Source: Candidatus Moraniibacteriota bacterium
GTDB taxonomy: Bacteria > Patescibacteriota > Minisyncoccia > Moranbacterales > UBA2206
Assembly: GCA_003483065.1 (NCBI GenBank)
Contig: DMWY01000013.1
Coordinates: forward strand, 1 to 60,681
DNA: 60,681 nucleotides
Direction of reading: 5' to 3'
Every line of letters starts with the position of its first letter. The first letter of the stretch is position 1. Under the pieces are notes generated by a model. It saw nothing but the letters and a program-made list of their open reading frames with translations, made no database searches and was not told the origin of the DNA. Both the position numbers and the translations under genes were made by a program. Below are positions 3,473 to 58,311 of the stretch, piece by piece.

Positions 3473-3504
3473 TTTTAAAATTAATAAAAATATCTTCAAA
3501 AAAA

Positions 3505-3948: not shown

Positions 3949-3998
3949 AAAGTATGCGAATAACCGACTACGAATCGGTACATGCGAATATTAAAATT

Positions 3999-36981: not shown

Positions 36982-37659
36982 ATGGCTAAATTTAAAGAAA
37001 AAATAAAAGCAATAAATTTAAGAAAAGAAGGTTTAAGTATTAAAGAAATCTCAAAGATATTGGGGGTTTCTAAAAGTTCAGCAAGTGTTTGGTGTTCCGA
37101 TGTTGAGCTAAGTAAGAAACAAATCCAAAAATTACATGAGCGGATGGTAATGGGCGGGTATGTTGGCAGGCTAAAAGGCGCGAATATTCAAAGAAAATTG
37201 AAACAAGAAAGAATCTCATTTTATAATAAGCAAGGCAAGAAAGAAATCGAACATTTACAAAAAAGAGAATTATTTATTGCGGGGCTTGCTTTGTATTGGG
37301 GAGAAGGAGGAAAAAGGGATTCCAGGGCTAGATTTTATAATTCCGATCATTTAATAATTGCTTTTATTATGAGGTGGTTCAGAGAAATATTGGGTGTTTC
37401 AGATGATAGGTTTATAATGTATGTCACAATAAATCAATCTCATAAGGAAAGACTCTCTGATATAATAGAATATTGGTCAAAAATAACAAAAATATCCACG
37501 GAACAATTTAGAAGACCAATTTTGATAAAATCAAAAAACAAAAAAGTTTACGAAAATCATTCTCGGCACTATGGAACTCTTTGTGTTAGTATATCTCGAA
37601 GTTCAAAATTATTTTATCAAATAAAGGGTTGGTTGATTGCTCTCGGTGAATCTGTTTGA
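36982..37659 (+). CDS. HTH-domain protein of unknown function, possibly homing-endonuclease-like, wedged between tRNA genes
   Basis: N-terminal HTH (LRKEGLSIKEISKILGVSKSSASVW). The motif LFIAGLALYWGEGGK loosely resembles LAGLIDADG. Has its own promoter-like TTGTCA-17-TATACT and a GGGAGG RBS. Confidence 0.6.
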   Translation: MAKFKEKIKAINLRKEGLSIKEISKILGVSKSSASVWCSDVELSKKQIQKLHERMVMGGYVGRLKGANIQRKLKQERISFYNKQGKKEIEHLQKRELFIAGLALYWGEGGKRDSRARFYNSDHLIIAFIMRWFREILGVSDDRFIMYVTINQSHKERLSDIIEYWSKITKISTEQFRRPILIKSKNKKVYENHSRHYGTLCVSISRSSKLFYQIKGWLIALGESV

Positions 37660-38012: not shown

Positions 38013-38765
38013 TTAATTTATGGATATCTCATTATCCTTTTTACTTTCAATTGAGTAGTAATCGTATTCATCAGCTCCGCTATACCATCTATAGTTGGCC
38101 TTATCAAATCTCAATTGTTTTAGCATATCTTGAATAGCAGTTTGAGCATCTTTGATATTTTTGTTGGCAGCAAACACTCCGCCGGAAAATTCAATTATAC
38201 TATTGCCAGATCCGCTAATTGTGACATCTACATCGTGTTCCCATAATGTTTTGCCGACTAGTTTTCCATAATCTGCTCGCATTTTAGGGAATTCTTTTAT
38301 TTGAAATTGGATGAGTTTAGTTTCAAGATCTTTGCCTAATTTATTGACTTTAGCATCGCTATTGCTCTTTGCTTGTTTAGTAAGACTGGACCAAAAAGTT
38401 ATTAGAAGTACTTCACTATTTATTTTCTCAATGCTTCCTCTATAATCGTCTCCTTTGAATGTGCTAATAGTTGCTATCTGCTTAGTCAGCTGTTCATCAA
38501 GAGGCACAGATTTTAATTCTTCAGTTTTTACTGTTTCCTGAGTATCTGCTTGGTTTTTTGATTGACTCGTATTTGAGCTTAGCCCGGCCATCAAAATTGG
38601 GAAAAATCCTATTCCAATAATAATGAGAATAAGTGCCATAATTGGATGTCGGTTTATCCAACTCCTAAGATCTGCTTGGCAGTGTTTGCATTTTTTTGCG
38701 GATTTGAGAATATTTTCTCCGCATGCTGAACATTTTTTAGTTTGTTCTGTTTGTTGTGTTTCCAT
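38013..38765 (-). CDS. Zinc-ribbon membrane protein, function unknown
   Basis: CSACGENILKSAKKCKHCQADL followed by the TM helix IMALILIIIGIGFFPILMAGL. Confidence 0.62.
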   Translation of the reverse strand: METQQTEQTKKCSACGENILKSAKKCKHCQADLRSWINRHPIMALILIIIGIGFFPILMAGLSSNTSQSKNQADTQETVKTEELKSVPLDEQLTKQIATISTFKGDDYRGSIEKINSEVLLITFWSSLTKQAKSNSDAKVNKLGKDLETKLIQFQIKEFPKMRADYGKLVGKTLWEHDVDVTISGSGNSIIEFSGGVFAANKNIKDAQTAIQDMLKQLRFDKANYRWYSGADEYDYYSIESKKDNEISIN

Positions 38766-39240: not shown

Positions 39241-39388
39241 CGCGTAGGTTTTAATTATTATTCGGTTCGAGGATACACAAAAGGTCCCGCGAGCCGACAG
39301 TAATCCTTTCGAATTACTCAACATTCCTTTCGAAGTGTTGACCTACGCGAATAAGTGTCGGTCACGAGACCGTTTTTATTCGCGTAGG
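39241..39388 (-). promoter_or_regulatory. Structured intergenic leader: alternative helices and twin GAAA-tetraloop hairpins
   Basis: See finding. 13-bp perfect inverted repeat at 39342-39354 / 39376-39388; long imperfect stem at 39283-39299 / 39356-39371; two hairpins with identical loops at 39299-39318 and 39319-39340. Confidence 0.45.
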
Positions 39389-39482
39389 ATTGATATATTA
39401 CGCCATGCTCACATCCGAAGATATGAGTTTAGGCAAGATTGTATCTCTATTATACATTTTAAAGAACAAAAATCAACCCGCT

Positions 39483-40847
39483 CTAATTTTTCATGGTGGT
39501 TTCATTTTTTTCTAAAATTAATTGCTTATCTTTAAAAATGAGCCTGCTTTTTGTGCAGGCCAGTATTTCTCTCTTTTCAGTAATATTCCCTTGCTTTAAA
39601 ATGTATTTTGCGTAACTTCTTAAATCGACTTTTTTCTCTTTTAATATTTCATTTTCCTTACCATTTATCTGCAGTACAATTTGTCTAAATTTAGCATATC
39701 TTTCTATCTCTTCTTCAAATTGTTTTTTAATTCCAATTTCATTTATATCCAATTGATCAATGATTTTTGTTAGTTGTGATATCAATTCTTCTTCTCGCAT
39801 ATATCCAGCTTTGCAATTGTGATCTCTGGATCTGGTGCATCCATAATAAATATATTTGACCGTGTTGCCATTTTTTAGTTTTTTATATTTCTCATCAGCC
39901 GTCATCCCTGATCCGCAATGTCCGCAAGTGATGAGTCTCGTGAATGCAAATTCTTTAGCGTCTTTCATCACCCTGTCCCTTTTCAGTTGCTCATGAGCAA
40001 TATCAAATAATTCTTTAGTGACAAGCGGTTCATGATTACCTTGATACCAATTACCACTACCTCGTGGATATTCGAATGGTCCGTAATAAAAAGTGTTTTG
40101 TAGAATTAGATAGATATTGCTGAGTGAAAGATTTTTGTTGCCCTTGGTTTTAAAATTCAATTCAAATCTCAGCCAATGATATATTTTTCTTCCACTCCAT
40201 CTTTCATGAGCAACTTTTTCAAATATTTTTCTGATAATTGGTCCGCGTTCTGGGTCAATAATGATGTGTCCTTTTCTCTCTACGCTTTTGTCCGTTAAAT
40301 ATCCAGATGGAGGACAGGTTGGCCAAAGTCCCATTTCACATCGAGTTCGAAGTCCTCGTTTTACATTTACTCCACGATTATCATTTTCCAACTTAGCTTG
40401 CGAGCCTAAAATCATCAGAAGAAATTTTTCATTCGGAGAATTTTTGAAAACTTGTCCGTATGTTCTGATTTCAATCAGTCCGCCTTGATCCATGAGATCT
40501 ACTAGCGTTCCAAGATCGCCAGCGTTTCGACTCAATCGATCTGGCGCCCAAGTTAGAATTCCATTGAATTTTTCTTTGCGAATATCTTCAATAAGTTCAT
40601 TGAAGATTGGACGTTGTGCTGAATCTTTAGCCGAATGACTTTCTCTGCGAATTTCCACAATTTCCAATCCTTCGCGTTCGGCAATTTGCAACATTTCTTT
40701 CACCTGAGAATCGATGGATAAAACCTGCCGTTCTTCCGATTCGGTTGACTTTCTTGCGTAGAGACAGTACTTAACCTTTATAATCTCTGCTGGCTCTTGA
40801 AAACCAGTTTGCGCTCCTAAAACTTGTTGTGTGAGTGTATTGTTCAT
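39483..40847 (-). CDS. Large serine recombinase; probable start ATG 40847 (the ORF track extends to 40913)
   Basis: Resolvase catalytic domain YCLYARKSTESEERQVLSIDSQ..WAPDRLSRN, recombinase domain, and zinc ribbon CGHCGS..YYGC. Confidence 0.9.
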   Translation of the reverse strand: MNNTLTQQVLGAQTGFQEPAEIIKVKYCLYARKSTESEERQVLSIDSQVKEMLQIAEREGLEIVEIRRESHSAKDSAQRPIFNELIEDIRKEKFNGILTWAPDRLSRNAGDLGTLVDLMDQGGLIEIRTYGQVFKNSPNEKFLLMILGSQAKLENDNRGVNVKRGLRTRCEMGLWPTCPPSGYLTDKSVERKGHIIIDPERGPIIRKIFEKVAHERWSGRKIYHWLRFELNFKTKGNKNLSLSNIYLILQNTFYYGPFEYPRGSGNWYQGNHEPLVTKELFDIAHEQLKRDRVMKDAKEFAFTRLITCGHCGSGMTADEKYKKLKNGNTVKYIYYGCTRSRDHNCKAGYMREEELISQLTKIIDQLDINEIGIKKQFEEEIERYAKFRQIVLQINGKENEILKEKKVDLRSYAKYILKQGNITEKREILACTKSRLIFKDKQLILEKNETTMKN

Positions 40848-40903
40848 ATACCCAATGAATGACGCGATACTCAAATGAAGTCCAGCCCTAGCTGTTGATA
40901 ACT
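40843..40903. repeat. Direct repeat copy 1 (61 nt), immediately upstream of and including the recombinase ATG
   Basis: TTCATATACCCAATGAATGACGCGATACTCAAATGAAGTCCAGCCCTAGCTGTTGATAACT. Confidence 0.85.
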
Positions 40904-40986
40904 TTTTGGACAATAATAAAGAGCTTATCTCGAAAGATAAGCTCTTGGTTCATAAGTTTATGATTTGATCCCTATTATATTGGGAC

Positions 40987-41565
40987 CTATAAATTGTCTT
41001 TGTCGGCCTTTACCTGCAAAATGGGCGGCTGGTTCAGTTTAATATATTGATCACTGAGCATGTATTTGCCATTCCATTCGACATAAATATCCTTGTCATT
41101 GAAGAAGAAAATGGCATCGCCATTACTGCCATAACTGCCGTCAAGGTCTGGGCTCGCAACAACATGTACATTATCACGACCAGAAGGGCCAGTGCCGGTA
41201 TTACCTTGGCCATCATCCACCAACTGATCAGTGCAGGTTAGCATGGAGTTGACCGATGAGACTTTTCCCTTAACAATGAAAAATCCCATGATCTTTCCGG
41301 TGTTAATCAAGTAGATGTAACTGATCTTATCGGAGACGTTAAATCGGGTCAATCGTTTCGATAAATTTCGCCGTTCCACGCTATCAGATAGCTTGGGTGG
41401 TGGCACAGCAATATTCAGACGTTTAAATGTTTCAGCGGTCACTATTTGATCCGCAGCTTGAATGTCGCTAACGGCTTCACTGGATGATTTGAAGTCATTT
41501 GCCGAACAAATAAATATCGGACAAAAAACAACAAAAGTCAACAGATATAACAATGCTTTTCTCAT
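40987..41565 (-). CDS. Lipoprotein, paralogue A, function unknown
   Basis: Start MRKALLYLLTFVVFCPIFIC|S (lipobox) preceded by GGAGGG. About 60-70% identical by eye to the upstream paralogue. Confidence 0.7.
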   Translation of the reverse strand: MRKALLYLLTFVVFCPIFICSANDFKSSSEAVSDIQAADQIVTAETFKRLNIAVPPPKLSDSVERRNLSKRLTRFNVSDKISYIYLINTGKIMGFFIVKGKVSSVNSMLTCTDQLVDDGQGNTGTGPSGRDNVHVVASPDLDGSYGSNGDAIFFFNDKDIYVEWNGKYMLSDQYIKLNQPPILQVKADKDNL

Positions 41566-41566
41566 G

Positions 41567-42229
41567 TTAGCCCTCCTTCCGCTTGTGCTTAGATGAAACA
41601 CCTTGTTGACTACCCTTATCGACTTCAGGTTTTTTTTGTTTGGTTGAAATATCCTGACCGTCTTTGTCAACTTCCAGCATTAATTCAGGTGGTTGATCCA
41701 GTTTGATATACTGGTCAGTAAACATATAAACGCCATTCCATTCAATATAAACATCCTTATCATTGAAAAAGAAAATGGCATCACCATTACTGCCATAACT
41801 GCCGTCAAGGTCTGGGCTCGCAACAGCATGAACATTACCACGTCCATAGCTTTTGCCCTGGCCATCATCCACCAACTGCTCAGTGCAGGTTAACATGGAG
41901 TTAACCGATGACACTTTGCCTTTGACAACAAAGAAACCCATAATTTTTCCGAAATCAACCAGATAGATATAGCTGATTTTATCGGCGACGTTAAACCGGG
42001 TCAAGCGTTTCGATAAATTGCGCCGTTCCACACTGTCATTAATATTTGATGGCGGTGGCACAACAATACTTAAACGCTTAAAGGCGATAGCAGTTGCCTC
42101 CTGATCCGCAGCTTGAATGTCGCTAACGGCCTTACTGGACTCGCTGTATTTGAGATTTTCTTCATCGCATCCGGCGAAAAAAAATAAGCTCATCAGCATT
42201 ATCAATAATAGAATAAGCTGTTTTTGCAT
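41567..42229 (-). CDS. Lipoprotein, paralogue B, function unknown
   Basis: MQKQLILLLIMLMSLFFFAGC|D lipobox; RBS GGAAGGAG. Shares SVERRNLSKRLTRFNV.DKISYIYL..GKIMGFF.VKGKVSSVNSMLTCT.QLVDDGQG with paralogue A. Confidence 0.7.
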   Translation of the reverse strand: MQKQLILLLIMLMSLFFFAGCDEENLKYSESSKAVSDIQAADQEATAIAFKRLSIVVPPPSNINDSVERRNLSKRLTRFNVADKISYIYLVDFGKIMGFFVVKGKVSSVNSMLTCTEQLVDDGQGKSYGRGNVHAVASPDLDGSYGSNGDAIFFFNDKDVYIEWNGVYMFTDQYIKLDQPPELMLEVDKDGQDISTKQKKPEVDKGSQQGVSSKHKRKEG

Positions 42230-42244
42230 GACTTCTCCTTCCGT

Positions 42245-42724
42245 TTAATTGATAAACATTTCAGAGGTAAGATGCTGTGGCAGATTGCGATCCATGAAAA
42301 TTTCCTTATTCTTTTTGGAGGCATCTGCGTTGTAGGCCGCGACCTGATCCTCGAGTTGGTTTTTAAACGCTGTTTCCATCTGACTCAAGCGGTCGTATTC
42401 CTGGCGCTGATTGTAATTCCATTGCTCAGGGTCTTTTGAAAGACCGGCTTTGGTATTTTCGAAAAGCTGAACGGCGTTTTTTAGTTTTTTGCCAGTGGCC
42501 TGAATCTCATTGTAGCGATTGAAAAAAGTCTCATATACCGCGATGACATTTTCGCCATCGAAAGTTTTTTCGACGATTTCCGAGGCAGTTCTTGCCGGCC
42601 GGGTTATCATTTTCCAGCCGAAACCGAGTGCCGAAATCAATACCATAACGCCAAATACATAAAGAATAATTCTTCCAACTTTTACTTCTCCCGTGTTTTC
42701 ATCATAATACTTCTGAGGTTTCAT
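42245..42724 (-). CDS. Single-TM protein with a helical ectodomain, function unknown
   Basis: TM helix IILYVFGVMVLISALGFGW; no recognised motif. Confidence 0.62.
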   Translation of the reverse strand: MKPQKYYDENTGEVKVGRIILYVFGVMVLISALGFGWKMITRPARTASEIVEKTFDGENVIAVYETFFNRYNEIQATGKKLKNAVQLFENTKAGLSKDPEQWNYNQRQEYDRLSQMETAFKNQLEDQVAAYNADASKKNKEIFMDRNLPQHLTSEMFIN

Positions 42725-42806
42725 TTTCTTGTCCTTTCATACTATAGGTTTTTTATTATTGACCAGACACTGGGTTTATTGTTAAAAAATTACGCCTTTT
42801 TTAAGA

Positions 42807-43058
42807 TTAGTTTTCACCTCCTTCAAAATTGGTTAAATAATTTTTCCATTGATTTTTAAACTTCCACGCCATAACAAATGAAACAAAAAGCACAGATTCG
42901 ACGATGGCAAGTGGCACAAAAATGTGCCAAACATAGTTTACCGCTGCTAAGACAAGCGCACCCAGAGAAAATGCGACAAGAAAGAAAATACTGATCTTCC
43001 ACCATCTCATCATATTCTCATGAGCTGATTGCATTAACATCTTTGATATTGGATCCAT
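42807..43058 (-). CDS. Small two-TM membrane protein
   Basis: WWKISIFFLVAFSLGALVLAAV and IFVPLAIVESVLFVSFVMAW; RBS AAGGAGG. Confidence 0.58.
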   Translation of the reverse strand: MDPISKMLMQSAHENMMRWWKISIFFLVAFSLGALVLAAVNYVWHIFVPLAIVESVLFVSFVMAWKFKNQWKNYLTNFEGGEN

Positions 43059-43073
43059 AACATGAGTCCTCCT

Positions 43074-43511
43074 TTAATTGATAGACAAATCAACTTGCTT
43101 GGGAATTTCAACACTATTGAGCTTGCAACCTACAGCGAAAATAAAATCACTGATTTTTTCGGTCGCAAGATTATATGCTCGTATTTTCCGCATATATTTG
43201 TGTTGAAGTTCTTTAATAGCAAGGTTTAACTGTCCATTACGGATATGCTGCGACTCCTTCCAGTTTTGTAAGTCTTTTGGTGCTTCCTTGCGAAATGCAT
43301 CATACTCATCCAAAATCTGGACTACGGAAATTTCGGTTGCCCTTAAATCCATGAACATGGACTGCACAGGCCTAAATTTTAAATTAATGATCCAGCATCC
43401 GAGTACGCTACCCAAAAAGAGTAGTGCGATAAGACCACACAAAATAATTATTGACGAATGACTTTTATTGCAGTTATTTTTTGCTGGTTGTGTTGCCATA
43501 ATCTGTTCCAT
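43074..43511 (-). CDS. Single-TM protein, function unknown; first gene of the cassette operon
   Basis: TM helix IIILCGLIALLFLGSVLGCWII; RBS GAGGAG. Tandem TTGACA promoters lie upstream on the minus strand (~43570-43650). Confidence 0.58.
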   Translation of the reverse strand: MEQIMATQPAKNNCNKSHSSIIILCGLIALLFLGSVLGCWIINLKFRPVQSMFMDLRATEISVVQILDEYDAFRKEAPKDLQNWKESQHIRNGQLNLAIKELQHKYMRKIRAYNLATEKISDFIFAVGCKLNSVEIPKQVDLSIN

Positions 43512-43730
43512 TGCTTTTTCTCCTCTTGTCTAAATGGTTGCTTTATTTTATGGAAATTATTCCTAGATTTACCGAGAAATGCTATTTAATTGTCAAGGAT
43601 CTGACTCAGCAGTATTGCATATTTTGTAGAAATTGTCAAGCTGTCGTAATAGCCCAATAGCTTGGAAACGTTTTCTGATATATACTAGGTAGTTAAATCT
43701 TAACGTTTCCTAATATGTATATAACCAATT

Positions 43731-43793
43731 TTCATATAACCCAATGAATGACGCGATACTCAAATGAAGTCCAGGCCTTAGTTGTTGATAACT
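43731..43793. repeat. Direct repeat copy 2 (63 nt)
   Basis: TTCATATAACCCAATGAATGACGCGATACTCAAATGAAGTCCAGGCCTTAGTTGTTGATAACT. Two indels and two substitutions relative to copy 1. Confidence 0.85.
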
Positions 43794-44107
43794 AAAACCC
43801 TCAAAAATCCTTCAAATATCTCATTATTTCATCTAAATTTTGGGCATTGACAAAAATTAGTAAAGGATTAAAATAATAATATAAAGGCAGTTGTGGAAGT
43901 AAAATATCATATATATATCAGATCCAAATAAATAACCATAAAGTAAAGAGTAAAGAGCGCTTAAGTTTTTAACTTCAAGAGAAGAGCTTAAGAGCAAATG
44001 GTTGAAAGTATGGGTCTTTTTTATTTCTCAAAAATAAAGAATACTTCTTAATTAATTAAAAATTTCAATTCTAAAAATTCTTAGGTTTTTTCTCTACTTA
44101 TTAAAAG

Positions 44108-45400
44108 ATGAGAAAAGAAAATCTAAAGATTACTTTTGTAAAAGTAGATTCTTTAAAGGTGGCAACCTTCAACCCACGAAAATGGGATGATGCAAAAAAA
44201 GCTAAGTTAAGAGAAAGTATTGAACGCTTCGGATTGGTCGATCCGTTGATAGTGAATTCAAATCCAGCCAGAAAAAATGTTTTGATAGGCGGACATTTTC
44301 GGCTTTTAATAGCTAGGGAGCTGGGATACAAGGATGTCCCGGTAGTATACCTCGATATTCCTGATATTGAAAAAGAAAAAGAACTCAATCTTCGCCTGAA
44401 TAAAAATGTCGGGGAGTGGGATATAGAACTTCTTAAGGAGTTTGATCTAAGTGCCTTGTTAGAGGTTGGTTTTGATGATGAAGATTTGTCTCAGATCTGG
44501 GACGACTCACTGGAGACTGAAGACGACAATTTTCAGGAAGAAAAAGAGCTGGCCGAAATTAAGGAAACTGATATTCAGCTCGGGGATTTGTTTGAACTTG
44601 GTTCGCATAGATTGTTATGTGCCGATGCACACGACTCAGCGAATATCCAAAAGTTGATGGGTGGAGAAAAAACTTCGATGATATACACAGATCCTATCTA
44701 TAATATTGGTGTGTCCTATGACAAAGGTATTGGTGGCAAACAAAGTTATGGAGGTAAAGTGGATGATAATAAATCCGATACAGAGTATCGTGAATTTCTC
44801 AAAAGTGGGATGCAAAGTGCAATGTCTGTGGTTAATAAAAATTTTCACTATTTTTGTTACTGTGATCAAAAGTACGTAGGAGTCATTCAAGATCTTTATC
44901 GAAAGCTAGGCATAGAAAACAAGCGAGTCGTCTTGTGGATTAAGAATGGACAGAATCCGACTCCGGGCGTGGCATTTTCGAAATGCTATGAGCCTTGTGT
45001 CTATGGCACAGTTGGTAGTCCGTACCTTTCCAAGAGTCTGCAGAATCTGAATGAAGTAATGAACAAGGAAATCGGAACTGGCAATCGCTTGATCGATGAC
45101 ATACTTGATGAACTTGATATATGGCTTGTAAAAAGATTGGCGGGTAACGAATATGAACATTCAACTTCCAAACCGCCAACACTCCACGAAAAAGCCATTC
45201 GCAGATGCACAAAGCCGGGAGATATCATCCTAGATCTTTATGGTGGGAGCGGAAGCACTTTGATTGCGGCAGAAATGCTCAAGCGCAGAGCTTATCTCAC
45301 TGAAATTGAGCCAAGGTTTTGTCAGCTCATAATAAATAGGTACGAGAAACTTACTGGCCAAAAAGCTAAACTAATTAGTAACACCAAAACAAATGACTAA
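44108..45400 (+). CDS. ParB-like nuclease domain fused to an N4/N6 DNA methyltransferase (phage/plasmid type)
   Basis: ParB/Srx motif LIGGHFRL, MTase motif IV variant IYTDPIYN, AdoMet motif ILDLYGGSGSTLIAA. Confidence 0.85.
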   Translation: MRKENLKITFVKVDSLKVATFNPRKWDDAKKAKLRESIERFGLVDPLIVNSNPARKNVLIGGHFRLLIARELGYKDVPVVYLDIPDIEKEKELNLRLNKNVGEWDIELLKEFDLSALLEVGFDDEDLSQIWDDSLETEDDNFQEEKELAEIKETDIQLGDLFELGSHRLLCADAHDSANIQKLMGGEKTSMIYTDPIYNIGVSYDKGIGGKQSYGGKVDDNKSDTEYREFLKSGMQSAMSVVNKNFHYFCYCDQKYVGVIQDLYRKLGIENKRVVLWIKNGQNPTPGVAFSKCYEPCVYGTVGSPYLSKSLQNLNEVMNKEIGTGNRLIDDILDELDIWLVKRLAGNEYEHSTSKPPTLHEKAIRRCTKPGDIILDLYGGSGSTLIAAEMLKRRAYLTEIEPRFCQLIINRYEKLTGQKAKLISNTKTND

Positions 45401-46163
45401 AATAAATTATGGCGACAAATTTCAAATCGGTGTTCATATCTTGGTATGTGGCGATGCATTAGATCCGAAAATCGTGAAAAAAGCAATTGGAGAAAATAAA
45501 ATCAACGCTTTCATTTCAGATATTCCGTACGGAATTGATTATACAGCTAGCAAGAAAAACTTTAGTAAAGTTAAGGTGGACAAGGACATTCTTAATGATG
45601 GTTTTGTTTCTGAAAAGCAATACGCCCAGTTTGTGGAGAATCTGATTACTCCAGTCATTTCATATCTCACTCGTAAAAACACTTTCTATATTTTCAATAG
45701 CGACAAGCAGATCTTCGCTTTGCGTGAAGGTATGGAAAAATGTGGAATACATTTTTCTCAACTTTTAATCTGGATAAAAAATCATGCGGTGATTGGCAGA
45801 AAAGATTATTTGCCGATGCATGAATTGATCGCCGTTGGCTGGTTTGGTGTGCATGAGTTCAAGAAATCTCAAGACAAATCAGTTTTGTTTTGTCCCAAGC
45901 CGAATAAAAGTTCATTGCATCCAACGCAAAAGCCTCTGAGTCTGATGCGCAGATTGATTCTCAACAGCACTTCTATTGGCGACTTTATCTATGAGCCGTG
46001 CGCAGGCTCGGGTAGCACTGGAATCGCCTGCGAACAAACAAAAAGAAGATGTATTATGATCGAACTTGATCCGGAATATTGCTGGACAATCATTGAGCGT
46101 TTTGAAAAGTTAGGAGTGAAAGTTATGAGAGTAATTGATAAAGAGAAAAAAGATGATAAATAA
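45393..46163 (+). CDS. N4/N6 DNA methyltransferase (PF01555-like)
   Basis: FISDIPYG (motif IV), HPTQKP, IYEPCAGSGSTGIAC. Confidence 0.82.
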   Translation: MTKINYGDKFQIGVHILVCGDALDPKIVKKAIGENKINAFISDIPYGIDYTASKKNFSKVKVDKDILNDGFVSEKQYAQFVENLITPVISYLTRKNTFYIFNSDKQIFALREGMEKCGIHFSQLLIWIKNHAVIGRKDYLPMHELIAVGWFGVHEFKKSQDKSVLFCPKPNKSSLHPTQKPLSLMRRLILNSTSIGDFIYEPCAGSGSTGIACEQTKRRCIMIELDPEYCWTIIERFEKLGVKVMRVIDKEKKDDK

Positions 46164-46605
46164 CAAAACTACAAAAAAACGAACGGCTGAGGATAAAAAG
46201 GCTGTTTTGGAACAATTGGCAAAACTGCCCATTATTCAAGTTGCCTGCCAAAAGGCTGGCATTAGTCGCGCGACATATTATCGTTGGCGAATTGCGGACA
46301 AACATTTTGCCAAAGATGCCGACGAAGCGATTGAGGAAGGCGTGCAGATGATTAATGATTTGTCAGAGTCGCAATTGATCAGTGCGATTAAAAACAATAA
46401 CTTTTCTGCAGTCAGGTTTTGGCTGCAGAATCGCCATCGCGCCTACGCTAATAAGGTTGAGGTTTTTGATCGAGGAAAGAGTGATAATCAAGAATTAACA
46501 GATGAGCAGAAGAAAATCATAGAAGAAGCTTTACAATTGGCTTCTGCTAGTCCTGAAAAAAATGGAAACGATGAATCAAAACCAAATTATCAAACAGTTA
46601 CTTAA
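46135..46605 (+). CDS. HTH protein, putative terminase small subunit
   Basis: ACQKAGISRATYYRWR HTH; positioned directly upstream of and overlapping the terminase large subunit gene. Confidence 0.5.
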   Translation: MIKRKKMINNKTTKKRTAEDKKAVLEQLAKLPIIQVACQKAGISRATYYRWRIADKHFAKDADEAIEEGVQMINDLSESQLISAIKNNNFSAVRFWLQNRHRAYANKVEVFDRGKSDNQELTDEQKKIIEEALQLASASPEKNGNDESKPNYQTVT

Positions 46606-48025
46606 TGACAGGCAGGTTCGTATACAAGCAACAAAGAAAAGTCACAATTTATTTTTCCATGTCTATTTGAGTGAATATGTTAGATATGAGACAGCCGATT
46701 TTCAAAAAGAAATGTTTCGAATTACAGAAGACGATTCAATAAGAGGATCAGTGATTGTGGCTTTTAGGGGTTCTGCAAAATCGACTATAATGGATTTGTC
46801 ATATCCCCTTTGGGCGGTAATGGGAAAGCAACAGAAAAAATTTGTAGTAATTTTTACACAAACTCAACAACAAGCCAAACTTATCATGTCCAATCTTAGG
46901 AAAGAGATGGAAACAAATAAATTGCTTATGCAAGAGATGGGCCCTTTTGAAGAACAAAACGGACAATGGAGTTCTCTTTCTATAGTAATCCCAAGGTTCA
47001 ATGCTCGCATTATGGTTGCCTCGGTTGATCAAAGCATCCGAGGAATGCGACATGGGGCATATCGTCCAGATTTAATTATTCTAGATGATGTTGAAGATTT
47101 GGACTCAGTAAAAACCAAGGAAGGCAGAGACAAAACTTTTAATTGGTTTGCTGGAGAAGTTATTCCAGCTGGTGATGAAAGCACTAAGATAATCATTATC
47201 GGGAATCTTTTGCATGAGGATTCGCTTTTGATGCGCCTTAGAGAAAGTATCGAAAAAGGAAAATGGAACGGCATTTTCAAATCCTATCCACTTGTTCGTG
47301 TTGTTGATGATGAAAGCATTATTCTTTGGCCAGGAAAGTTTAAGAGTATGGAAGATATTAAGCGATTGAATTTTTCTATCCCTAACGAAAATTCGTGGCA
47401 ACGCGAATACATGCTGAATATTGTTCCGGACGAAGGTCAAATTATTCTGCCAGAGTGGATTCATCATTATAATAAACTTCCTGCGGAGCAACCAAATTTT
47501 GTAATAACAGGAATCGATCTTGCTATATCTGAAAAAGATACTGCTGACTATACTGCAATGGTTTCGGCGTGTGCTTATGGAACTGGGGAAAGACAGCGAG
47601 TATATATTTTGCCCAATCCGGTCAATAGGCGGATGGATTTTCCCAAGACTCTGGAAAAAATAAAAGAATTGAATCAATTCTTAAGTGGAATTGGTTGTCC
47701 TAAAATATATATTGAAGAAGTTGGTTATCAGGGAGCAATCATTCAACAGTTAAGAACAATGGGCATCTTTGCTGAAGGAGTAAATCCTCACGGAAGCGAT
47801 AAGCGTTCACGACTAGTTTCTGTGAGCGGGTTGATTTTTTCAGGAAAAATAATGTTTCCATCTCATGGGGCGAAAGAACTAATTCAACAATTAACAGGTT
47901 TTGGCAAAGAAAAGCATGATGATTTAGCTGATGCCTTTTCAATCTTGGCTTTGCAGATTATAGAAAGAGCTCGGAAACAAGGAGGATTTATTATTGCTGG
48001 TGCGCCATTGCCGGATTTTATGTGA
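46562..48025 (+). CDS. Phage terminase large subunit
   Basis: Walker A-like AFRGSAKST, Walker B DLIILDDVED, and C-terminal RNase H-like nuclease residues (GIDLAIS..DYTA; HDDLADAF). Confidence 0.82.
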   Translation: METMNQNQIIKQLLNDRQVRIQATKKSHNLFFHVYLSEYVRYETADFQKEMFRITEDDSIRGSVIVAFRGSAKSTIMDLSYPLWAVMGKQQKKFVVIFTQTQQQAKLIMSNLRKEMETNKLLMQEMGPFEEQNGQWSSLSIVIPRFNARIMVASVDQSIRGMRHGAYRPDLIILDDVEDLDSVKTKEGRDKTFNWFAGEVIPAGDESTKIIIIGNLLHEDSLLMRLRESIEKGKWNGIFKSYPLVRVVDDESIILWPGKFKSMEDIKRLNFSIPNENSWQREYMLNIVPDEGQIILPEWIHHYNKLPAEQPNFVITGIDLAISEKDTADYTAMVSACAYGTGERQRVYILPNPVNRRMDFPKTLEKIKELNQFLSGIGCPKIYIEEVGYQGAIIQQLRTMGIFAEGVNPHGSDKRSRLVSVSGLIFSGKIMFPSHGAKELIQQLTGFGKEKHDDLADAFSILALQIIERARKQGGFIIAGAPLPDFM

Positions 48026-48100: not shown

Positions 48101-48292
48101 ATGAAAAAGAGCAAAAACTTACCGGAAATACTCACTCTCAAAGAAGTTTGCGAAGTTCTTAATTGTCATCCCAACACTCTCCGTAATTGGGACAATGAAG
48201 GCACATTAAAGGCTATTCGTTTTGGGAAGCGTGGCGATAGAAGATATCACAAAAAGGACATAGAAAAGTTAATTATAAAAATGAAGAATTAA
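48101..48292 (+). CDS. MerR/excisionase-type HTH protein
   Basis: LTLKEVCEVLNCHPNTLRNWDNEGTLKAIRFGKRGDRRY. Confidence 0.75.
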   Translation: MKKSKNLPEILTLKEVCEVLNCHPNTLRNWDNEGTLKAIRFGKRGDRRYHKKDIEKLIIKMKN

Positions 48293-48316: not shown

Positions 48317-51300
48317 ATGCCAACGATAACAAACGAAGGTACAAATACACTGTCATCAAGTCTGAAAAATACACTTCCTAATTGTGACAGGATAGATGCT
48401 CTTGTTGGTTATTTCTATTTTTCTGGATTTAAGGATTTGCATAACGAGCTAAAAGACAAGAAAATAAGAATTCTTGTTGGGATGGATATCGATAATAAAA
48501 TCCTTGAAAAAGTATCGACGCTTAAGGAGCTTAATTTTGATCATCATATAGTTGAAACTAATATTTCTTCTCGCTCAGGTGCAAAAGAAGATTATATCGA
48601 AAATTTTTCTAAAATCTTTAACGATACTGACTATTTTGATAATGAAGAGTCGCAAAAAGCTTTTGAGATATTTCTTGATAAAATTAAGGACGGTAGCTTG
48701 GAAATTAAAAAAACTGCTGAGGCGAATCATTCTAAATTTTATATATTGCACGAAAAAACAGAACAGAGAGGAATTGTAATTGTTGGATCTAGCAATTTAA
48801 CAATTTCTGGACTTAAAGAACAACGAGAGCACAATATTGTTCTTTCAGAAAAACATTACTACGAAAGTCATATAAAGGATTTTGAAAATTGCTGGAATGA
48901 TCCAAGCAATATTGTGATTACCGATATTGAATCCTCAGAAAACTTTATCAAAGAAGTAAAAAGAAAAATATGGCTGTATTCATTGCCTGAACCATCGTTA
49001 ATGTATTATAGAGTTCTCAGTGAATATTTCGCGATTACGGAAATAGAGAATATGAAAACTCCCAAGAATATTACGGGTGGCAAGTTTTCCGATCTTAAAT
49101 ATCAAAAAGACGCTATTAATTTGGGAATTGATAGAATAAAAAAATTCGGCGGAGTTATAATTGCAGATGTGGTTGGGCTTGGGAAGAGTGTTGTGGCCTC
49201 TGCCATTGCTCATAATCTTGGAATTAAAACGATTATTATCGCGCCTCCACATCTCGAAAGTCAGTGGAAAGATTATATGGCCGAATTTGATTTTAAGGGA
49301 TTTGTTTATACTACTGGAAAAATCGAGGAAGCTTTTGAAAGACATGGCAATGATGAGGGTAGACTTTTAATTATTCTTGATGAAGCCCACAAACATAGGA
49401 ATGAGGACACTGATAATTACAAGGTACTACACAAATTATGTGCCGGTCATTATGTTATGGCGCTTTCCGCAACTCCGTTCAACAATGATCCGAAGGATAT
49501 TTATGCTCTCATAAAGTTATTTAGTACCCCCGGGCAATCTACCATTCGAACAGTGGAAAATCTTAGTATGTCTTTCCACATGCTTTTTAAGAGATATAAG
49601 GCAGTAAGAAAGGAGCTTCGAAAAACTGACAATAAAGGCGGTGATCAAAATTCTGACATTAAAATTGAACTACATGCTATTGCGGATGAATTACGAAGAA
49701 TGATAGAGCCACTTATTATTCGTCGATCAAGGTTAGATTTGGAAGAAATTGAAGAATATCGAAACGATTTGAAAGTTCAGGGAGTTGCTTTTGCCAAGGT
49801 AAAAGATCCGGAATTACTTGAATATGATTTAGGTGATATGTTTGAAATGTATATAGATACGCTTGAGAAAATTTCTCCTGAAGATAAAAGTACGAATTTT
49901 ATTGGTGCTCGTTATAAGCCAGCAAGTTATATTAAACAAGGATCAGAATTTATTTATAAATTAGTTGAAAATGACGATGATGATGAGGGTATTTCTGCCG
50001 AAGAAAAAATACAGCAAATTAAACAGGCACAGGTAAACATCGCTAAGTTTATGCGGAGATTGCTCGTGAGGCGTTTTGAAAGTTCGATTGGTGCATTTAA
50101 TATTTCTCTTGGAAATATGATCACTTCCACAGAAGTGATGCTTGATTGGTATGTAAATAGAAAAGAAGTTCCTATTTATAAAAAAGGCGCTCTTCCCGAT
50201 GTTGAATATTTAAATGATATGAATGATCAAGAAAGAGAAGAGTTGCTAGCTAAATTTGAAGACAAGGGACTTATTAGAATACCTGTGTCTGAACTTCAAC
50301 CTGAATTCGAACAGCACCTAAAGGACGACATTAGATTACTTAAGGAAATACAAGTTAAATGGGCAGGCAATAAGAATGATCCTAAATTCGATTTTCTTAG
50401 AAATAGATTGTCTGATTCTATTGCTAGGGACAGAAAAAGGAAAATAATTATATTTACTGAATTTTCAGATACAGCAAATTATATTTATCAAAAATTAAGC
50501 GACGATGGATTTAAAAGAGTTTTTAAATATAGTTCGGAAGATGCCTCAGATGAAAATAAAAGAATAATCAGAACTAATTTTGATGCTGGATTGGATGATC
50601 TGAAACAGGCAGATGATTTTGACGTCATTATCGCAACTGATGCGATCTCAGAAGGTTTTAATCTTCATCGTGCCGGAACAGTTATCAATTATGACATCCC
50701 GTATAACCCCACGAGAGTAATCCAGCGAGTTGGTCGTATCAATCGTATAAATAAAAAAGTTTTTGAAGAACTCTATATTTATAACTTTTTCCCTACATTA
50801 ACCGGCGAGTTAGAGACGCGCACAAAAGCAATTTCAACATTGAAAATGGATTTGATCCATACGCTTTTGGGCGAAGACACAAAAACACTTACATCCGAAG
50901 AAGATTTGAAAAATTATTTTGCGAAACAATATAAAGAGGAAAATTCCAAAAATGAAAGTTTGTCATGGGATGCTCCATATAGAAATACTTGGCTCAAAAT
51001 AAAAGATGATCAGGAAATAATGCGTAAAATTTCTGGAATTCCGCATAGATCAAGAATAGCTAGAAAAGCAAAAATTTCTGGTGTGGTGGCCTTTGCCAAA
51101 AAGAGTGGAAATTTCGTTTTTGCATTTGGTGAGAATCCAGAAAATGTGCAAATCGTTTCTCCGCAATTTGCTTTGCCATTATTTGATGACATCGCTGATT
51201 CTGAAAAAGCTTTGCAAACAAGTATCAATTTTGAACCAATTTATAAAATTACAAAAGAGCATATTTTCAAGGACAACACTAAGGCACCAGTAGATAGCGG

Positions 51301-51589
51301 GAGAAAACAGGATTCTCTTAATAAAATTAAGATTCTTGCAGATAGCTATCCACAAGCAAAAGATCTTTGTATCGATGTTATTCGTGTAATTAAGGATTTG
51401 GACGGTCTGCCTAATGGTGTGCTCAAAGAAATTGCTGAATTAAAGATTGATAAAAATGATTTTGACAAAGCCTTTCAAGAACTTCGCGAATTGGTGCCAC
51501 ATAAATATCTCGAAAATATATTCAAAACAGCAGAGCGAGCCAATGACTCCGGAAAGTTAATTGTATTATCTGAAGAATTAATCGCATGA
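48317..51589 (+). CDS. PLD (HKD) nuclease domain fused to an SNF2-family SF2 helicase
   Basis: HKD motif NHSKFYILHEK..VGSSNLTISG. Helicase motifs ADVVGLGKS, ILDEAHKHRN, LSATPFNN, TDAISEGFNLH, VIQRVGRINR. Confidence 0.88.
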   Translation: MPTITNEGTNTLSSSLKNTLPNCDRIDALVGYFYFSGFKDLHNELKDKKIRILVGMDIDNKILEKVSTLKELNFDHHIVETNISSRSGAKEDYIENFSKIFNDTDYFDNEESQKAFEIFLDKIKDGSLEIKKTAEANHSKFYILHEKTEQRGIVIVGSSNLTISGLKEQREHNIVLSEKHYYESHIKDFENCWNDPSNIVITDIESSENFIKEVKRKIWLYSLPEPSLMYYRVLSEYFAITEIENMKTPKNITGGKFSDLKYQKDAINLGIDRIKKFGGVIIADVVGLGKSVVASAIAHNLGIKTIIIAPPHLESQWKDYMAEFDFKGFVYTTGKIEEAFERHGNDEGRLLIILDEAHKHRNEDTDNYKVLHKLCAGHYVMALSATPFNNDPKDIYALIKLFSTPGQSTIRTVENLSMSFHMLFKRYKAVRKELRKTDNKGGDQNSDIKIELHAIADELRRMIEPLIIRRSRLDLEEIEEYRNDLKVQGVAFAKVKDPELLEYDLGDMFEMYIDTLEKISPEDKSTNFIGARYKPASYIKQGSEFIYKLVENDDDDEGISAEEKIQQIKQAQVNIAKFMRRLLVRRFESSIGAFNISLGNMITSTEVMLDWYVNRKEVPIYKKGALPDVEYLNDMNDQEREELLAKFEDKGLIRIPVSELQPEFEQHLKDDIRLLKEIQVKWAGNKNDPKFDFLRNRLSDSIARDRKRKIIIFTEFSDTANYIYQKLSDDGFKRVFKYSSEDASDENKRIIRTNFDAGLDDLKQADDFDVIIATDAISEGFNLHRAGTVINYDIPYNPTRVIQRVGRINRINKKVFEELYIYNFFPTLTGELETRTKAISTLKMDLIHTLLGEDTKTLTSEEDLKNYFAKQYKEENSKNESLSWDAPYRNTWLKIKDDQEIMRKISGIPHRSRIARKAKISGVVAFAKKSGNFVFAFGENPENVQIVSPQFALPLFDDIADSEKALQTSINFEPIYKITKEHIFKDNTKAPVDSGRKQDSLNKIKILADSYPQAKDLCIDVIRVIKDLDGLPNGVLKEIAELKIDKNDFDKAFQELRELVPHKYLENIFKTAERANDSGKLIVLSEELIA

Positions 51590-54500
51590 TGAAATTTAAT
51601 GAAAAATACAATCCCGAAGAATTCCACAGTTTCTTGGAAGATTTTTTGCCTGCGGATTTTGCGAAAAATGAAAAGGATATTGTTATCAATAAAGATCGAT
51701 ATAAAATAATTACCAACGCAAAAGAGTTGGGATTTTGTGAGTCACTTGATTTGTATATTTTGGAAATGGAACATAATCGTGAAAAGGATCCGCGGGTTGC
51801 CATTACCACGGATGCTTTCAAAATCCTAGCTGACCATTGGATACATAGAGCGCTAGTTGTATTTAAAAATAATGACTCGGAAAATTATCGATTTTCATAT
51901 CTTACTATCTCCCTTGATATAAATGATAAAAACAAGGCAATTAAAAAGTATTCCAATGCACGCAGGTATTCTTTTTATTTAGGTGTTGATTCTAAAGTGA
52001 GAACACCTGAGCAACAACTTATCAAGAAAGGAAAAATTCAGAATATTGATGATCTATTTAGCAGATTTTCGGTGGAGGTGGTCAATAAACAATTTTATTT
52101 GGAGGTAGCGAAACATTTTGACGAGCTTGTTTTAAGCGAGGATAAAAATCTTGTGCTTCCTAGTGTGTCGCAAGAAGATGTTAATTTTAGAAAAAGTTTT
52201 GCAGTGCGGTTAATCGGTCGGTTGATGTTCTGTTGGTTTTTGAAACAGAAAAAATCTGATAAGGGTCAGCTTATCCCGGATGAATTGCTTTCTTCAAGTA
52301 TAGTTGCGGATAATTATTATCACAATATCCTTGAGCCATTATTTTTTGGCGCCTTAAACACAATTATTGAGGCTCGTGATATTCGGAGCGATTTATTTGA
52401 TAAAGTGCCATATCTTAACGGAGGACTCTTTAATCCTCAGTCGGATGATTATTATGAAGTAGATCGTGGAACTTTTACCTCTAAACATATAAACACTCTC
52501 AAAATCAGCGACTCTTGGTTTAGAAACTTTTTTGAACTTCTGGAAACTTATAATTTCACTATTGATGAAAATACCGTCTTTGATCAAGAGCTTTCGGTTG
52601 ATCCGGAAATGCTAGGCAGAATTTTTGAAAATCTGCTGGCAGAAATTAATCCGGAAACTGGAAGTAGCGAAAGAAAAAGAACAGGGAGTTTCTATACTCC
52701 TCGCCAAATCGTAGAATATATGGTTGATCAGTCGCTCATTGAATATTTCAAGACAAAAACTAGAATAGATTCTAATAAACTCACTGCTCTTGTGAGTTAC
52801 GATCTGAATGATGACGCTGATTATCCGCTTTCTGAAGAAGAAAAAATGAGCATAGTGATGGCGATTGAGTCTTTGAAAATTCTTGACCCTGCCTGTGGAT
52901 CGGGAGCATACCCAATTGGAGCACTTCAAAAAATAGTATACATTCTTCAGTTAGTTGATCCGGATTGTAAGTTATGGCTCAATGAAAAATTAAAAGGTAT
53001 TCCCGAATTGTATAAACAAAAGATAATCAATGAAGTTCAGTCTAACCCTTTCGATTACACTCGCAAACTTGATGTAATAAAAAATTCTATTTTTGGAGTG
53101 GATATTCAGCCGATTGCTGTGGATGTTTCTCGCTTGCGTTGTTTCCTTACGCTAGTTGTCGAGTCAGAGATAGATGACACGAAACCCAACAGAGGCATTG
53201 AGCCATTGCCAAATTTGGATTTTAAATTCGTTTGCGCCAATACTTTGATAGGTTTGCCAAAATTGCAATCCAATAATCTTTTCGAAGATCATTCTGGGGT
53301 TATTGAATTGTCAGCGATAATGTCAGAATATTTTTCGTGCAACAGTCAACGAAAGAATGAAATAAGACTTAAATTTTCCAATACTCAAAAGGATATTTTA
53401 AACAGAACTGTTGCTCATTATGGAAGAAGCACTGGGGAACTTACGCTCAAGCTTATCTCGTGGGATCCATTTAGTAATAATTCTAATTCTTGGTTTGATC
53501 CGGAATGGATGTTTGGTATTGAAGAAAAATTCGACATAGTAATCGGCAATCCTCCTTATGTAAATTTAGTCAGAATTCCTAACGAAGAAAGGGATATTTA
53601 TAAGAAAATTTTTACTGTCACTAAAAACAAAGTTGATCTCTACGCTTTTTTTATTGAAAAGTCGCAAGAATTAACAAAGGAAAATGGGACACTTTCTTTT
53701 ATTATACCTCAGACATGGAAAGCCACGGATAGTTTTTTGAAGTTAAGACAATTTATATTAAGACATTTTACAATAAAACAGATTGTAAATTTAGAAATGG
53801 GCGCTTTTACCGCCATTGTTAGACCACTTGTGCTATTACTGAAAAAGGATAAAGAGGAGAATTATAAAATTAATATTTATAATTCAAATTTTAAACATAT
53901 ATCAGAAATTAATATTAATGAAATATTATCTAAGAGTAATTTTGCGATCGACACTGATTCAAGCTATTCAGATAAGAGTTTATTTAACAAGATAGAGTCT
54001 GGCGCAAGACCCCTAGGTGAAATTATCCAATTTACAAGAGGAATAAAAACAAGTGATGATAAAAGATTTATCGGAAAAATTAATAAAAATGAAGAATACA
54101 AAAGGGTTTTCAGGGGTAGAAACATTAAGGCGTATGAACTAAATTGGCAAAAAGAGTATATGCAGTATAGACCAGATTTGATGAGAGAAAAAGTAGGGTG
54201 CCTCCCTCATACAAAAAAACTTTTTGAGGTGCCAATGAAATTAGTTACTCAGCGCGTAAATAGCTCGATGCAATTGCTTGTTGCTATTGATTTTGATTCA
54301 AATTACTTCCTAGACACAACGAATGTGTCTAGACATGAAACTCTAGATGCAAAATATTCAATGCTATTTTTATTGGGTCTACTAAATTCAAAACTAATAA
54401 ATTTTTGGTATTCAAAAAACTTTAGAATGCCTACTATTGGACTATATGAGTTACATTCGGTTCCTGTCAAAGAGACAGAATTTGCGCAAGAAAAAATCTC

Positions 54501-54648
54501 TAAACTTGTAAAGGATATACTTCAATTCAAAAAATCAGGCAAAGAAAAAGATGCGAAAGATATGCAATTTAAAATTGATGAATTAGTTTATGAGTTGTAT
54601 GGCCTGACAGATGAAGAAATAAAAATTGTGGAAGGAAAAAATGGATGA
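51586..54648 (+). CDS. Eco57I/PglX/DrmMI-type N6-adenine DNA methyltransferase with a C-terminal target-recognition region
   Basis: SFYTPRQIVEYMV, ILDPACGSGAYP, IFGVDIQPIAV, FDIVIGNPPYV. ATGA overlap with the helicase stop. Confidence 0.88.
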   Translation: MMKFNEKYNPEEFHSFLEDFLPADFAKNEKDIVINKDRYKIITNAKELGFCESLDLYILEMEHNREKDPRVAITTDAFKILADHWIHRALVVFKNNDSENYRFSYLTISLDINDKNKAIKKYSNARRYSFYLGVDSKVRTPEQQLIKKGKIQNIDDLFSRFSVEVVNKQFYLEVAKHFDELVLSEDKNLVLPSVSQEDVNFRKSFAVRLIGRLMFCWFLKQKKSDKGQLIPDELLSSSIVADNYYHNILEPLFFGALNTIIEARDIRSDLFDKVPYLNGGLFNPQSDDYYEVDRGTFTSKHINTLKISDSWFRNFFELLETYNFTIDENTVFDQELSVDPEMLGRIFENLLAEINPETGSSERKRTGSFYTPRQIVEYMVDQSLIEYFKTKTRIDSNKLTALVSYDLNDDADYPLSEEEKMSIVMAIESLKILDPACGSGAYPIGALQKIVYILQLVDPDCKLWLNEKLKGIPELYKQKIINEVQSNPFDYTRKLDVIKNSIFGVDIQPIAVDVSRLRCFLTLVVESEIDDTKPNRGIEPLPNLDFKFVCANTLIGLPKLQSNNLFEDHSGVIELSAIMSEYFSCNSQRKNEIRLKFSNTQKDILNRTVAHYGRSTGELTLKLISWDPFSNNSNSWFDPEWMFGIEEKFDIVIGNPPYVNLVRIPNEERDIYKKIFTVTKNKVDLYAFFIEKSQELTKENGTLSFIIPQTWKATDSFLKLRQFILRHFTIKQIVNLEMGAFTAIVRPLVLLLKKDKEENYKINIYNSNFKHISEININEILSKSNFAIDTDSSYSDKSLFNKIESGARPLGEIIQFTRGIKTSDDKRFIGKINKNEEYKRVFRGRNIKAYELNWQKEYMQYRPDLMREKVGCLPHTKKLFEVPMKLVTQRVNSSMQLLVAIDFDSNYFLDTTNVSRHETLDAKYSMLFLLGLLNSKLINFWYSKNFRMPTIGLYELHSVPVKETEFAQEKISKLVKDILQFKKSGKEKDAKDMQFKIDELVYELYGLTDEEIKIVEGKNG

Positions 54649-58123: not shown

Positions 58124-58124
58124 A

Positions 58125-58259
58125 ATGCCAAAACCAGATCCGGAATGTGATTATTGCAATTATTTGAAGGCAGTGAGAGAAGTAGAAAAAAATCAAAACG
58201 GCGTGGCAATGAATTACAAAATGGGATACTTTTTGGATAAATGGAATTTGATAAAGTAA
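58125..58259 (+). CDS. Possible 44-aa CxxC micro-ORF (not in the ORF track)
   Basis: MPKPDPECDYCNYLKAVREVEKNQNGVAMNYKMGYFLDKWNLIK. Starts 1 nt after the upstream stop. Confidence 0.25.
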   Translation: MPKPDPECDYCNYLKAVREVEKNQNGVAMNYKMGYFLDKWNLIK

Positions 58260-58311
58260 ATGGCGCAAAAAAGAAGAATAATATACGTAAATAATTTAAT
58301 GATTTTTTGTT

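Follow-up and report, generated by a model that had tools for sequence, protein, structure and literature searches.

Two direct copies of a sequence of about 62 nt, called hereafter R, bracket a five-gene, 2.8-kb operon next to a large serine recombinase gene in a 60,681-nt stretch of DNA from Candidatus Moraniibacteriota bacterium (contig DMWY01000013.1 of assembly GCA_003483065.1; this whole stretch is called the window). With moderate confidence, we propose that recombination inside R brought this host-type envelope operon between R and the recombinase gene, and that R is an asymmetric cis-control region. The reverse complement of the window, L001, is contig DOSI01000005.1 of GCA_003512165.1, a metagenome-assembled genome of a groundwater Patescibacteria of the Moranbacteria type. 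Coordinates of all features are given in Table 1.

The two copies of R are 61 nt (copy 1, before the recombinase gene) and 63 nt (copy 2) long, and start 2888–2889 nt apart. Read in the sense of the recombinase gene, copy 1 is AGTTATCAACAGCTAGGGCTGGACTTCATTTGAGTATCGCGTCATTCATTGGGTATATGAA and copy 2 is AGTTATCAACAACTAAGGCCTGGACTTCATTTGAGTATCGCGTCATTCATTGGGTTATATGAA. Two substitutions and two single-base indels separate them, with 59 of 63 aligned positions identical, and outside both ends the homology stops abruptly. A 35-nt core matched the window twice, versus 0.00 matches expected from 100 shuffles. The recombinase ATG (40847–40845, minus strand) is inside copy 1, and five minus-strand open reading frames (ORFs) lie between the copies. 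A preliminary description of this DNA had reported the repeats with these positions, orientation and differences, the start codon within copy 1 and the five genes, and was right on each.

Comparison of the copies with the R alleles of relatives revealed that both are mosaic. The left half of copy 2 is identical to that of the empty-site relative L003 (25/25 nt) and retains the ancestral upstream context (GGATTTTTGAGGGTTTT). The left half of copy 1 is a non-native allele (AACAGCTAGGG-CTGGAC), with three differences within 8 nt that match alleles of other lineages, and is devoid of the GGxTTTT motifs that relatives carry upstream of R. For the right halves, that of copy 1 is identical to L005 and L002, and that of copy 2 is unique: an extra T is private to it, and its final ATGAA is followed by an 11-codon ORF. 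No difference falls in the central 36 nt. A native left half in copy 2 and a foreign left half in copy 1, around an identical core, fit a single crossover inside R.

Close relatives were found without the operon. L003, L002, L058 and L008, whose recombinases are respectively 97%, 91%, 75% and 73% identical to that of the window, have one R, no cassette, and collinear flanks on both sides. In L001 coordinates, the empty-site junction corresponds to position 7117 joined to position 9945, with a single R. Therefore, the cassette is a real insertion, as had been supposed. The ancestral upstream context (the intergenic region of the ParB-methylase gene, with its GGxTTTT motifs) remains at copy 2, and the ancestral downstream context, the recombinase gene, at copy 1.

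The block next to copy 2, which encodes the ParB-methylase, a methylase and the small and large terminase subunits TerS and TerL (44108–48025), is inverted relative to the recombinase gene in most relatives (L005, L012, L060, L010, L004, L009 and others), where the 3' end of TerL abuts R. L003 and L005, which come from one study and have 96–97% identical recombinases, differ in the orientation of this block, and its identity to the window is 82% in one and about 68% in the other. Since both the orientation and the sequence of the block differ between these two loci, R is a mosaic boundary. An inverted copy of R at the far end of the block, sought as an explanation of the inversion, was not found, nor were flanking inverted repeats in the window.

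Next to recombinase genes, R is widespread. In a scan of recombinase homologues that took one genome per species (63 loci, mostly labelled as Patescibacteria metagenome bins), the motif CTGGAC-N13-15-GCGTCATTCATT was found before the recombinase gene in about 30 loci, and the same was true for 84 of 128 metagenome or viral sites. Closer relatives have R once only, just before the recombinase ATG. The distance from R to the ATG is 0–25 nt, and neither CTGGAC nor GCGTCATTCATT varies among recombinases as little as about 60% identical. From 5' to 3', the layout consists of tandem GGxTTTT motifs, often AGTTATCAACAG, the invariant CTGGAC, a variable spacer of 13–15 nt, the invariant (T)GCGTCATTCATTGGGTA and the start codon. 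R is better conserved than the sequence around it, and its orientation follows the gene. It was found nowhere else in the window (two copies in 60.7 kb) and, in relatives, nowhere else within flanks of 10 kb. Of the other motif matches, many were chance occurrences in unrelated high-G+C DNA, and a search of viral contigs gave three motif matches, no exact core and no cassette homologue. From its position, polarity and conservation, R appears to be the cis-control region of the recombinase gene, a promoter- or operator-like leader.

The preliminary description had considered the repeats as sites for excision, with a 60-nt identity that is unusual beside the short attachment (att) cores of large serine recombinases, and had mentioned copies upstream of other recombinases as part of what would speak against it. 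A special 60-nt att site was not supported: R is the leader of homologous recombinases in dozens of loci, and it has no dyad symmetry. In five R alleles with their flanks, the best dyads scored 10–14 of 22, versus a shuffle mean of 11.1–11.6 (SD 1.0–1.1).

Other candidate functions of R were set aside. RNAalifold on 22 R alleles gave three invariant pairs and no covariation, so that a role as an RNA element was rejected, and so was a sigma-70 promoter inside R, of which the promoter scan listed none and for which no acceptable hexamers were seen by eye. R may also be read as an extracytoplasmic function (ECF)-like pattern, GGAC-N15-CGTC. R-like sites with typical flanks in L081, L086, L113, L128 and L182 precede long ORFs that do not look like recombinases under translation table 11; these may reflect recoded lineages or frame problems.

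The protein encoded downstream of R contains all three domains of large serine recombinases, the resolvase catalytic domain (PF00239, Resolvase, 2e-21), the recombinase domain (PF07508, Recombinase, 1e-13) and the zinc beta-ribbon (PF13408, Zn_ribbon_recom, 2e-09), in agreement with its first identification, and its translation includes the serine motif YARKSTESEE. Its nearest solved relatives are the SPbeta YokA/SprA-type recombinase and the TP901-1 integrase; likeness to CcrB and XisF was seen with weak scores. The gene is followed by a LOOT RNA that matches the full-length Rfam model with 62.2 bits (gathering threshold 46.4) and has a folding z-score of −5.9. LOOT also lies about 50–60 nt past the recombinase stop in at least 10 related Patescibacteria loci (L007, L055, L012, L060, L008, L013, L009, L004, L002 and L006), and is inverted and upstream of the recombinase gene in L030 and L023. 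To our knowledge, no organism or gene context had been assigned to this RNA class. R, the recombinase gene and LOOT form a conserved module that is common to many elements of the Patescibacteria, or candidate phyla radiation (CPR).

Two or three direct copies of R around different cargo, immediately upstream of the recombinase gene, were found at four other loci, L015, L077, L110 and L183. The cargo is 1.5 kb with two membrane-protein genes in L015, 2.7 kb with three genes in L077, and 375 nt with a single gene for a Zn-ribbon membrane protein in L110. The duplicated stretch is about 30 nt in L015, 62 nt in the window, and longer in L077 and L110. Because this length varies between loci, homology-guided exchange is favoured over a fixed site-specific crossover. 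At most one bracketed segment was found per locus, and multi-cassette arrays of the integron type were not seen. L148 has two complete R-recombinase units in direct orientation, 6.1 kb apart and 88% identical in DNA, with opposite-strand genes between them, and L014 and L015 are on one chromosome, separated by 21 kb.

The origin of the cassette in the window was traced to host-type DNA. Four of its five genes match a chromosomal Patescibacteria cluster that is free of R and consists of two membrane-anchored proteins and two paralogous lipoproteins. In L190 this cluster adjoins the ATP synthase operon. The closest chromosomal copy, L187, is 74% identical in DNA, and the tandem pairing of the lipoproteins is also found in the chromosomal homologues L187, L188 and L190. 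All named homologues of gene 4 belong to Patescibacteria, and some have a prepilin N-methyl signal instead of a lipobox. Three close alleles of the cassette (P0002, P0004 and P0122) were each found in a short contig without R. Upstream of gene 1, the predicted sigma-70-type promoters form a double promoter region that starts at about 43640 and is common to L187; TTGACA-17-AATACT with an upstream TG (43639–43611) matches the consensus. Since R-free chromosomal clusters match the cassette, the promoter region is common to L187 and a strong terminator-like hairpin closes the operon, the cassette is a captured host-type operon. With its own predicted sigma-70-type promoters and terminator it qualifies as a moron, and the cargo is probably transcribed from its own promoters, judging from these signals. 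The cassette proteins matched no Pfam, PHROG, PADLOC or NCBIfam family, and gene 4 had no match in the PDB by fold or sequence (AlphaFold model, pLDDT 72).

The cassette had been described as compositionally foreign. Computed profiles did reveal a shift, which is small: the cassette has 39.3% G+C and the window 35.9%, which puts the cassette at about +1.9 SD and at the 97th percentile among 2.8-kb windows, and the tetranucleotide distance is at the 92nd percentile. Three cassette genes are at about 42% G+C, the adjoining ParB-methylase gene is at 39.8%, and host stretches at 400–4100 reach 39%.

Between copy 2 and the cassette promoters lies a leader of 86 nt. No homologue was found for it or for the cassette tail, and a minor population variant that has R and the leader diverges exactly at 43645. 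The leader contains a 47-bp inverted repeat (43664–43710), GGAAACGTT-N29-AACGTTTCC, with perfect 9-bp inverted ends and no second copy in the window. In size and symmetry, this repeat resembles a recombinase site more than R does.

Recombination inside R would account for the locus as follows. R-family recombinase genes are carried by integrative, terminase-bearing Patescibacteria elements, and the resident R would have recombined with an incoming molecule made of R, leader, operon and tail. The likeliest event would be either a single, Campbell-type crossover with a cassette circle that carried R, or unequal exchange with a related element. Such a crossover would leave one R before the cargo and one before the recombinase gene, which would thus have kept its control region. 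The reverse reaction (loss, circle formation or tandem duplication) could proceed through the 36-nt core, probably by general homologous recombination, and is rare in the sampled populations. The crossover itself was probably homology-driven rather than catalysed by the recombinase.

Several observations weigh against this proposal. Identity over 36 nt is near the lower limit for efficient RecA-type exchange, and R does not fit the sigma-70 consensus. R is confined to the side of the recombinase gene, and cargo is repeatedly found at that exact spot, which is also compatible with the recombinase acting on R. Signs of ongoing exchange were scarce as well. The public runs with the locus consist of k=31 contigs, which are unable to read across the 36-nt identical core, and depth was read on each side of it. 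A search of RNA runs gave no match to the locus. In sample X1, depths were 85.8 on the recombinase side, 84.5 at the cassette end, 83.9 in the leader and 86.0 on the ParB side. The corresponding depths in X6 were 624.7, 616.7, 703.3 and 629.9, that of the leader being inflated by the minor variant that branches at 43645. The depth of the cassette edge in the deep source samples is 97–99% of that of the flanks, without amplification of the cassette interior. At high coverage, ongoing exchange is thus not seen, and the cassette is retained by about 97% or more of the genomes in these samples. Look-ups of the exact ParB-methylase, gene 5 and gene 1 proteins for an empty-site form in the source community gave only cassette-bearing contexts, with the exception of L208. 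This contig from another sample (ERZ5996431; 1.8 kb, k-mer coverage 1.8) runs from the cassette 3' end, terminator and tail through a hybrid R into the leader and genes 1–3. Its R is made of the left half of copy 1 and the right half of copy 2, the exact junction of an excised circle or of a tandem duplication. A chimeric path across the 36-nt core, in a graph with sparse coverage, would explain it equally well, and the contig is a lead, not a proof. Of the earlier suggestion that the cassette is excised or circularised, this one junction contig is what stands; neither an empty-site nor an amplified subpopulation was found in the deep source metagenomes.

The first alternative is that R is the site used by the adjacent large serine recombinase, cassette circles being captured and excised there as on a platform like that of the staphylococcal cassette chromosome (SCC) or of integrons. 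The strict tie of R to the recombinase gene and its absence from flanks elsewhere, its better conservation than the surroundings, and the five independent loci with direct R copies around diverse cargo immediately upstream of the recombinase gene all agree with it. So do the mosaic halves, which fit a crossover in the core, the circle-type junction of L208 and the weak CcrB- and XisF-like scores. However, R is devoid of the dyad symmetry of known serine-recombinase sites. Known large serine recombinases join unlike attP and attB sites into attL and attR without 36–60 nt of identity, and the R copies, with 36 identical nt, are unlike attL/attR hybrids, which have a very short core. Moreover, the extent of the duplication varies between loci, there are no multi-cassette arrays, and no excision signal was detected in depth at 86x or 625x. 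We consider this alternative unlikely. Its most specific form, in which the recombinase itself recombines R as an asymmetric site that doubles as a leader, and so captures and releases R-tagged circles of host envelope genes, is doubtful as well. A further point against R as the site used by the recombinase is that a conventional att site is probably located downstream of the recombinase gene, since the element adjoins tRNA genes and its recombinase, LOOT and Zn-ribbon end faces the host.

Tandem accretion followed by decay would leave copy 2 as the orphaned leader of an inner recombinase gene deleted from codon 2 on. The preliminary description had also raised an orphaned upstream region, and part of this was confirmed: copy 2 has kept the ancestral context and the ATGAA, and ATGAAAAT resembles the start of recombinase alleles that begin with MKI (L031, L146). 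Tandem units do exist (L148, and L014 and L015 on one chromosome), and host-like cargo DNA fits accretion. In contrast, the DNA between the copies contained no remnant of a second recombinase or of LOOT, and nothing homologous to the 86-nt leader was found. The window differs from the empty-site loci by one R and a clean 2.8-kb insertion, a simpler change than accretion and a precise deletion, and accretion needs a truncated second element that starts exactly at R. This history seems improbable.

Replication template switching, or another illegitimate event that happened only once, could also have placed a copy of a chromosomal operon in the leader, with the 62-nt duplication as a by-product. 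R would then be irrelevant to mobility, and the other R-bracketed loci would have arisen by separate accidents or by ordinary reuse of a promoter. In favour of this, microhomology is present where copy 2 meets the leader (TTGGGTTATAT, then TTGGTTATAT), the chromosomal homologues have no R, and the arrangement is stable across samples and assemblies. However, an in situ duplication predicts copies that are identical at first, not the three differences that copy 1 has in common with other lineages next to an unchanged centre. The recurrence of bracketed cargo at the equivalent place in four other loci and the L208 junction also count against a single accident, and we give it a low probability.

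An assembly artefact or chance repeat is extremely unlikely. Although the window comes from a metagenome assembly, and graphs built at k=31 are broken by the repeat, independent assemblies of this organism (L191, L192) have an identical sequence across both copies. Four more contigs (L193, L194, L195 and L196), of which L194 was built at k=141, continue from the cassette across copy 1 into the recombinase gene, and the chance expectation for the core is zero.

Comparison with known systems places the locus between several of them. In T4-type phages, genes are shuffled as modules, and mini-circles form, through PeSL repeats, which contain promoters (Arbiol et al. 2010, PMC2839356). PeSLs are short direct repeats of control signals that flank non-essential genes, and recombination between neighbouring ones inserts, deletes or swaps genes. 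The likeness extends to repeat-bracketed cargo, relatives with an empty site, indels between relatives that are bounded by repeats (in the window and in L015, L077, L110 and L183) and perhaps, here, the circle-type junction of one low-coverage contig. In contrast, PeSLs are numerous sigma-70-like promoter-plus-terminator units spread across hyperplastic regions of lytic phages, whereas R is a single, non-sigma-70-like element with a putative promoter role, which accompanies the serine recombinase gene of an element integrated in Patescibacteria and is duplicated only locally. Like prophage morons, the cassette is an autonomous unit with a predicted promoter and terminator and envelope cargo, and is not found in close relatives; its composition may differ slightly as well. 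Duplications of 60 nt from the leader of a neighbouring gene are not usual for morons, and the cargo here can be recognised as copied from a cluster that is conserved on chromosomes of the host phylum. The closest known behaviour thus appears to be PeSL-type shuffling at repeated regulatory cassettes, together with ordinary moron acquisition.

With SCC elements and their Ccr recombinases, and with ccr-less pseudo-SCC, the locus has in common a large serine recombinase gene beside cargo bounded by direct repeats, tandem or composite arrangements, and cargo without its own recombinase. In SCC, however, the direct repeats are short att cores, with the end of rlmH as the fixed chromosomal target, and they enclose the recombinase genes as well, whereas R is the recombinase's own leader, without dyad symmetry, and the recombinase gene is outside the bracketed segment. 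The res sites of the Tn3 family are also cis sites immediately upstream of a serine recombinase gene, possibly operator and recombination site at once, and direct copies are resolved by deletion. They differ from R in having dyad-symmetric subsites bound by a small resolvase; the enzyme here is a large serine recombinase. Integrons, with attI and attC, similarly place variable cargo beside a recombinase gene at a defined site, but their tyrosine recombinase, folded single-stranded attC, mostly promoterless cassettes and long arrays have no counterpart here.

As to the setting, window positions 1–37,900 contain host genes (gatCAB, ligA, pilins and tRNAs), and the integrated element begins at about 38,000, beside tRNA genes, with its recombinase, LOOT and Zn-ribbon end toward the host. 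Its order is a Zn-ribbon membrane protein, a DUF4365/Mrr-like protein, LOOT, the large serine recombinase and the five-gene cassette, then the divergent ParB-methylase, a second methylase, the small and large terminase subunits and an HTH_17 Xis-like protein (48101–48292), and finally a defence-type cluster with an HKD+SNF2 helicase, a type IIG-like methylase and two large unknown proteins. This cluster (48317–60306) adjoins the terminase block; its helicase is a DrmD-like HKD/PLD+SNF2 protein of 1090 aa, its methylase an Eco57I/type IIG-like protein of 1020 aa, and its last two proteins (1165 and 664 aa) have no family match. On the host side, a gene for a 225-aa HTH protein (36982–37659), flanked by two tRNA-Met genes, is missing from the otherwise syntenic relative L064, and is therefore perhaps a separate small insertion. 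The N-terminus of the 250-aa Zn-ribbon protein (about 38650–38765) was compared downstream of the recombinase/LOOT module in L007, L006, L028, L147 and L150; conservation is limited to the first 40 residues or so, which form the zinc ribbon. This conserved end may mark the true attachment junction of the element, which would then be inside a host gene.

Table 1. Features of the R-bracketed locus (window coordinates).
Feature	Position	Strand	Remark
LOOT RNA (Rfam RF03000)	39299..39435	-	directly 3' of recombinase stop
Large serine recombinase, 454 aa	39483..40847	-	domain matches
R copy 1	40843..40903	-	directly upstream of recombinase, ATG included
36-nt exact run common to both copies	40850..40885 and 43739..43774		holds invariant CTGGAC and GCGTCATTCATT (minus strand)
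Terminator-like hairpin, 12 pairs and T-rich tail	40919..40946	-	closes cassette, 15 nt before copy 1
Cassette gene 5, predicted lipoprotein, 192 aa	40987..41565	-	paralogue of gene 4, 76% protein identity
Cassette gene 4, predicted lipoprotein, 220 aa	41567..42229	-	family of 614 homologues
Cassette gene 3, membrane-anchored, 159 aa	42245..42724	-	kept in chromosomal clusters
Cassette gene 2, two-helix membrane protein, 83 aa	42807..43058	-	no counterpart in closest chromosomal cluster L187
Cassette gene 1, membrane-anchored, 145 aa	43074..43511	-	
Cassette promoter region (predicted)	43505..43640	-	69% identical to region upstream of L187 homologue
86-nt leader, copy 2 to cassette promoters	43645..43730	-	contains 47-bp inverted repeat
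R copy 2	43731..43793	-	far end of cassette, same orientation as copy 1
Ancestral intergenic region, R to divergent ParB-methylase gene	43794..44107		collinear with empty-site relatives; GGxTTTT motifs abut copy 2

The mobile elements of Patescibacteria are poorly understood. The present analysis defines a module made of R, a recombinase gene and LOOT, a hotspot for the capture of host envelope genes, and occupied and empty sites that form a natural pair. Were R-mediated exchange active, surface-protein operons could pass in this way between elements and genomes of these episymbiotic bacteria. If the recombinase catalyses the exchange, R would represent a new type of site and a new use of large serine recombinases, which are widely used tools of genome engineering. 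If neither holds, the locus would be a well-documented case of moron insertion.

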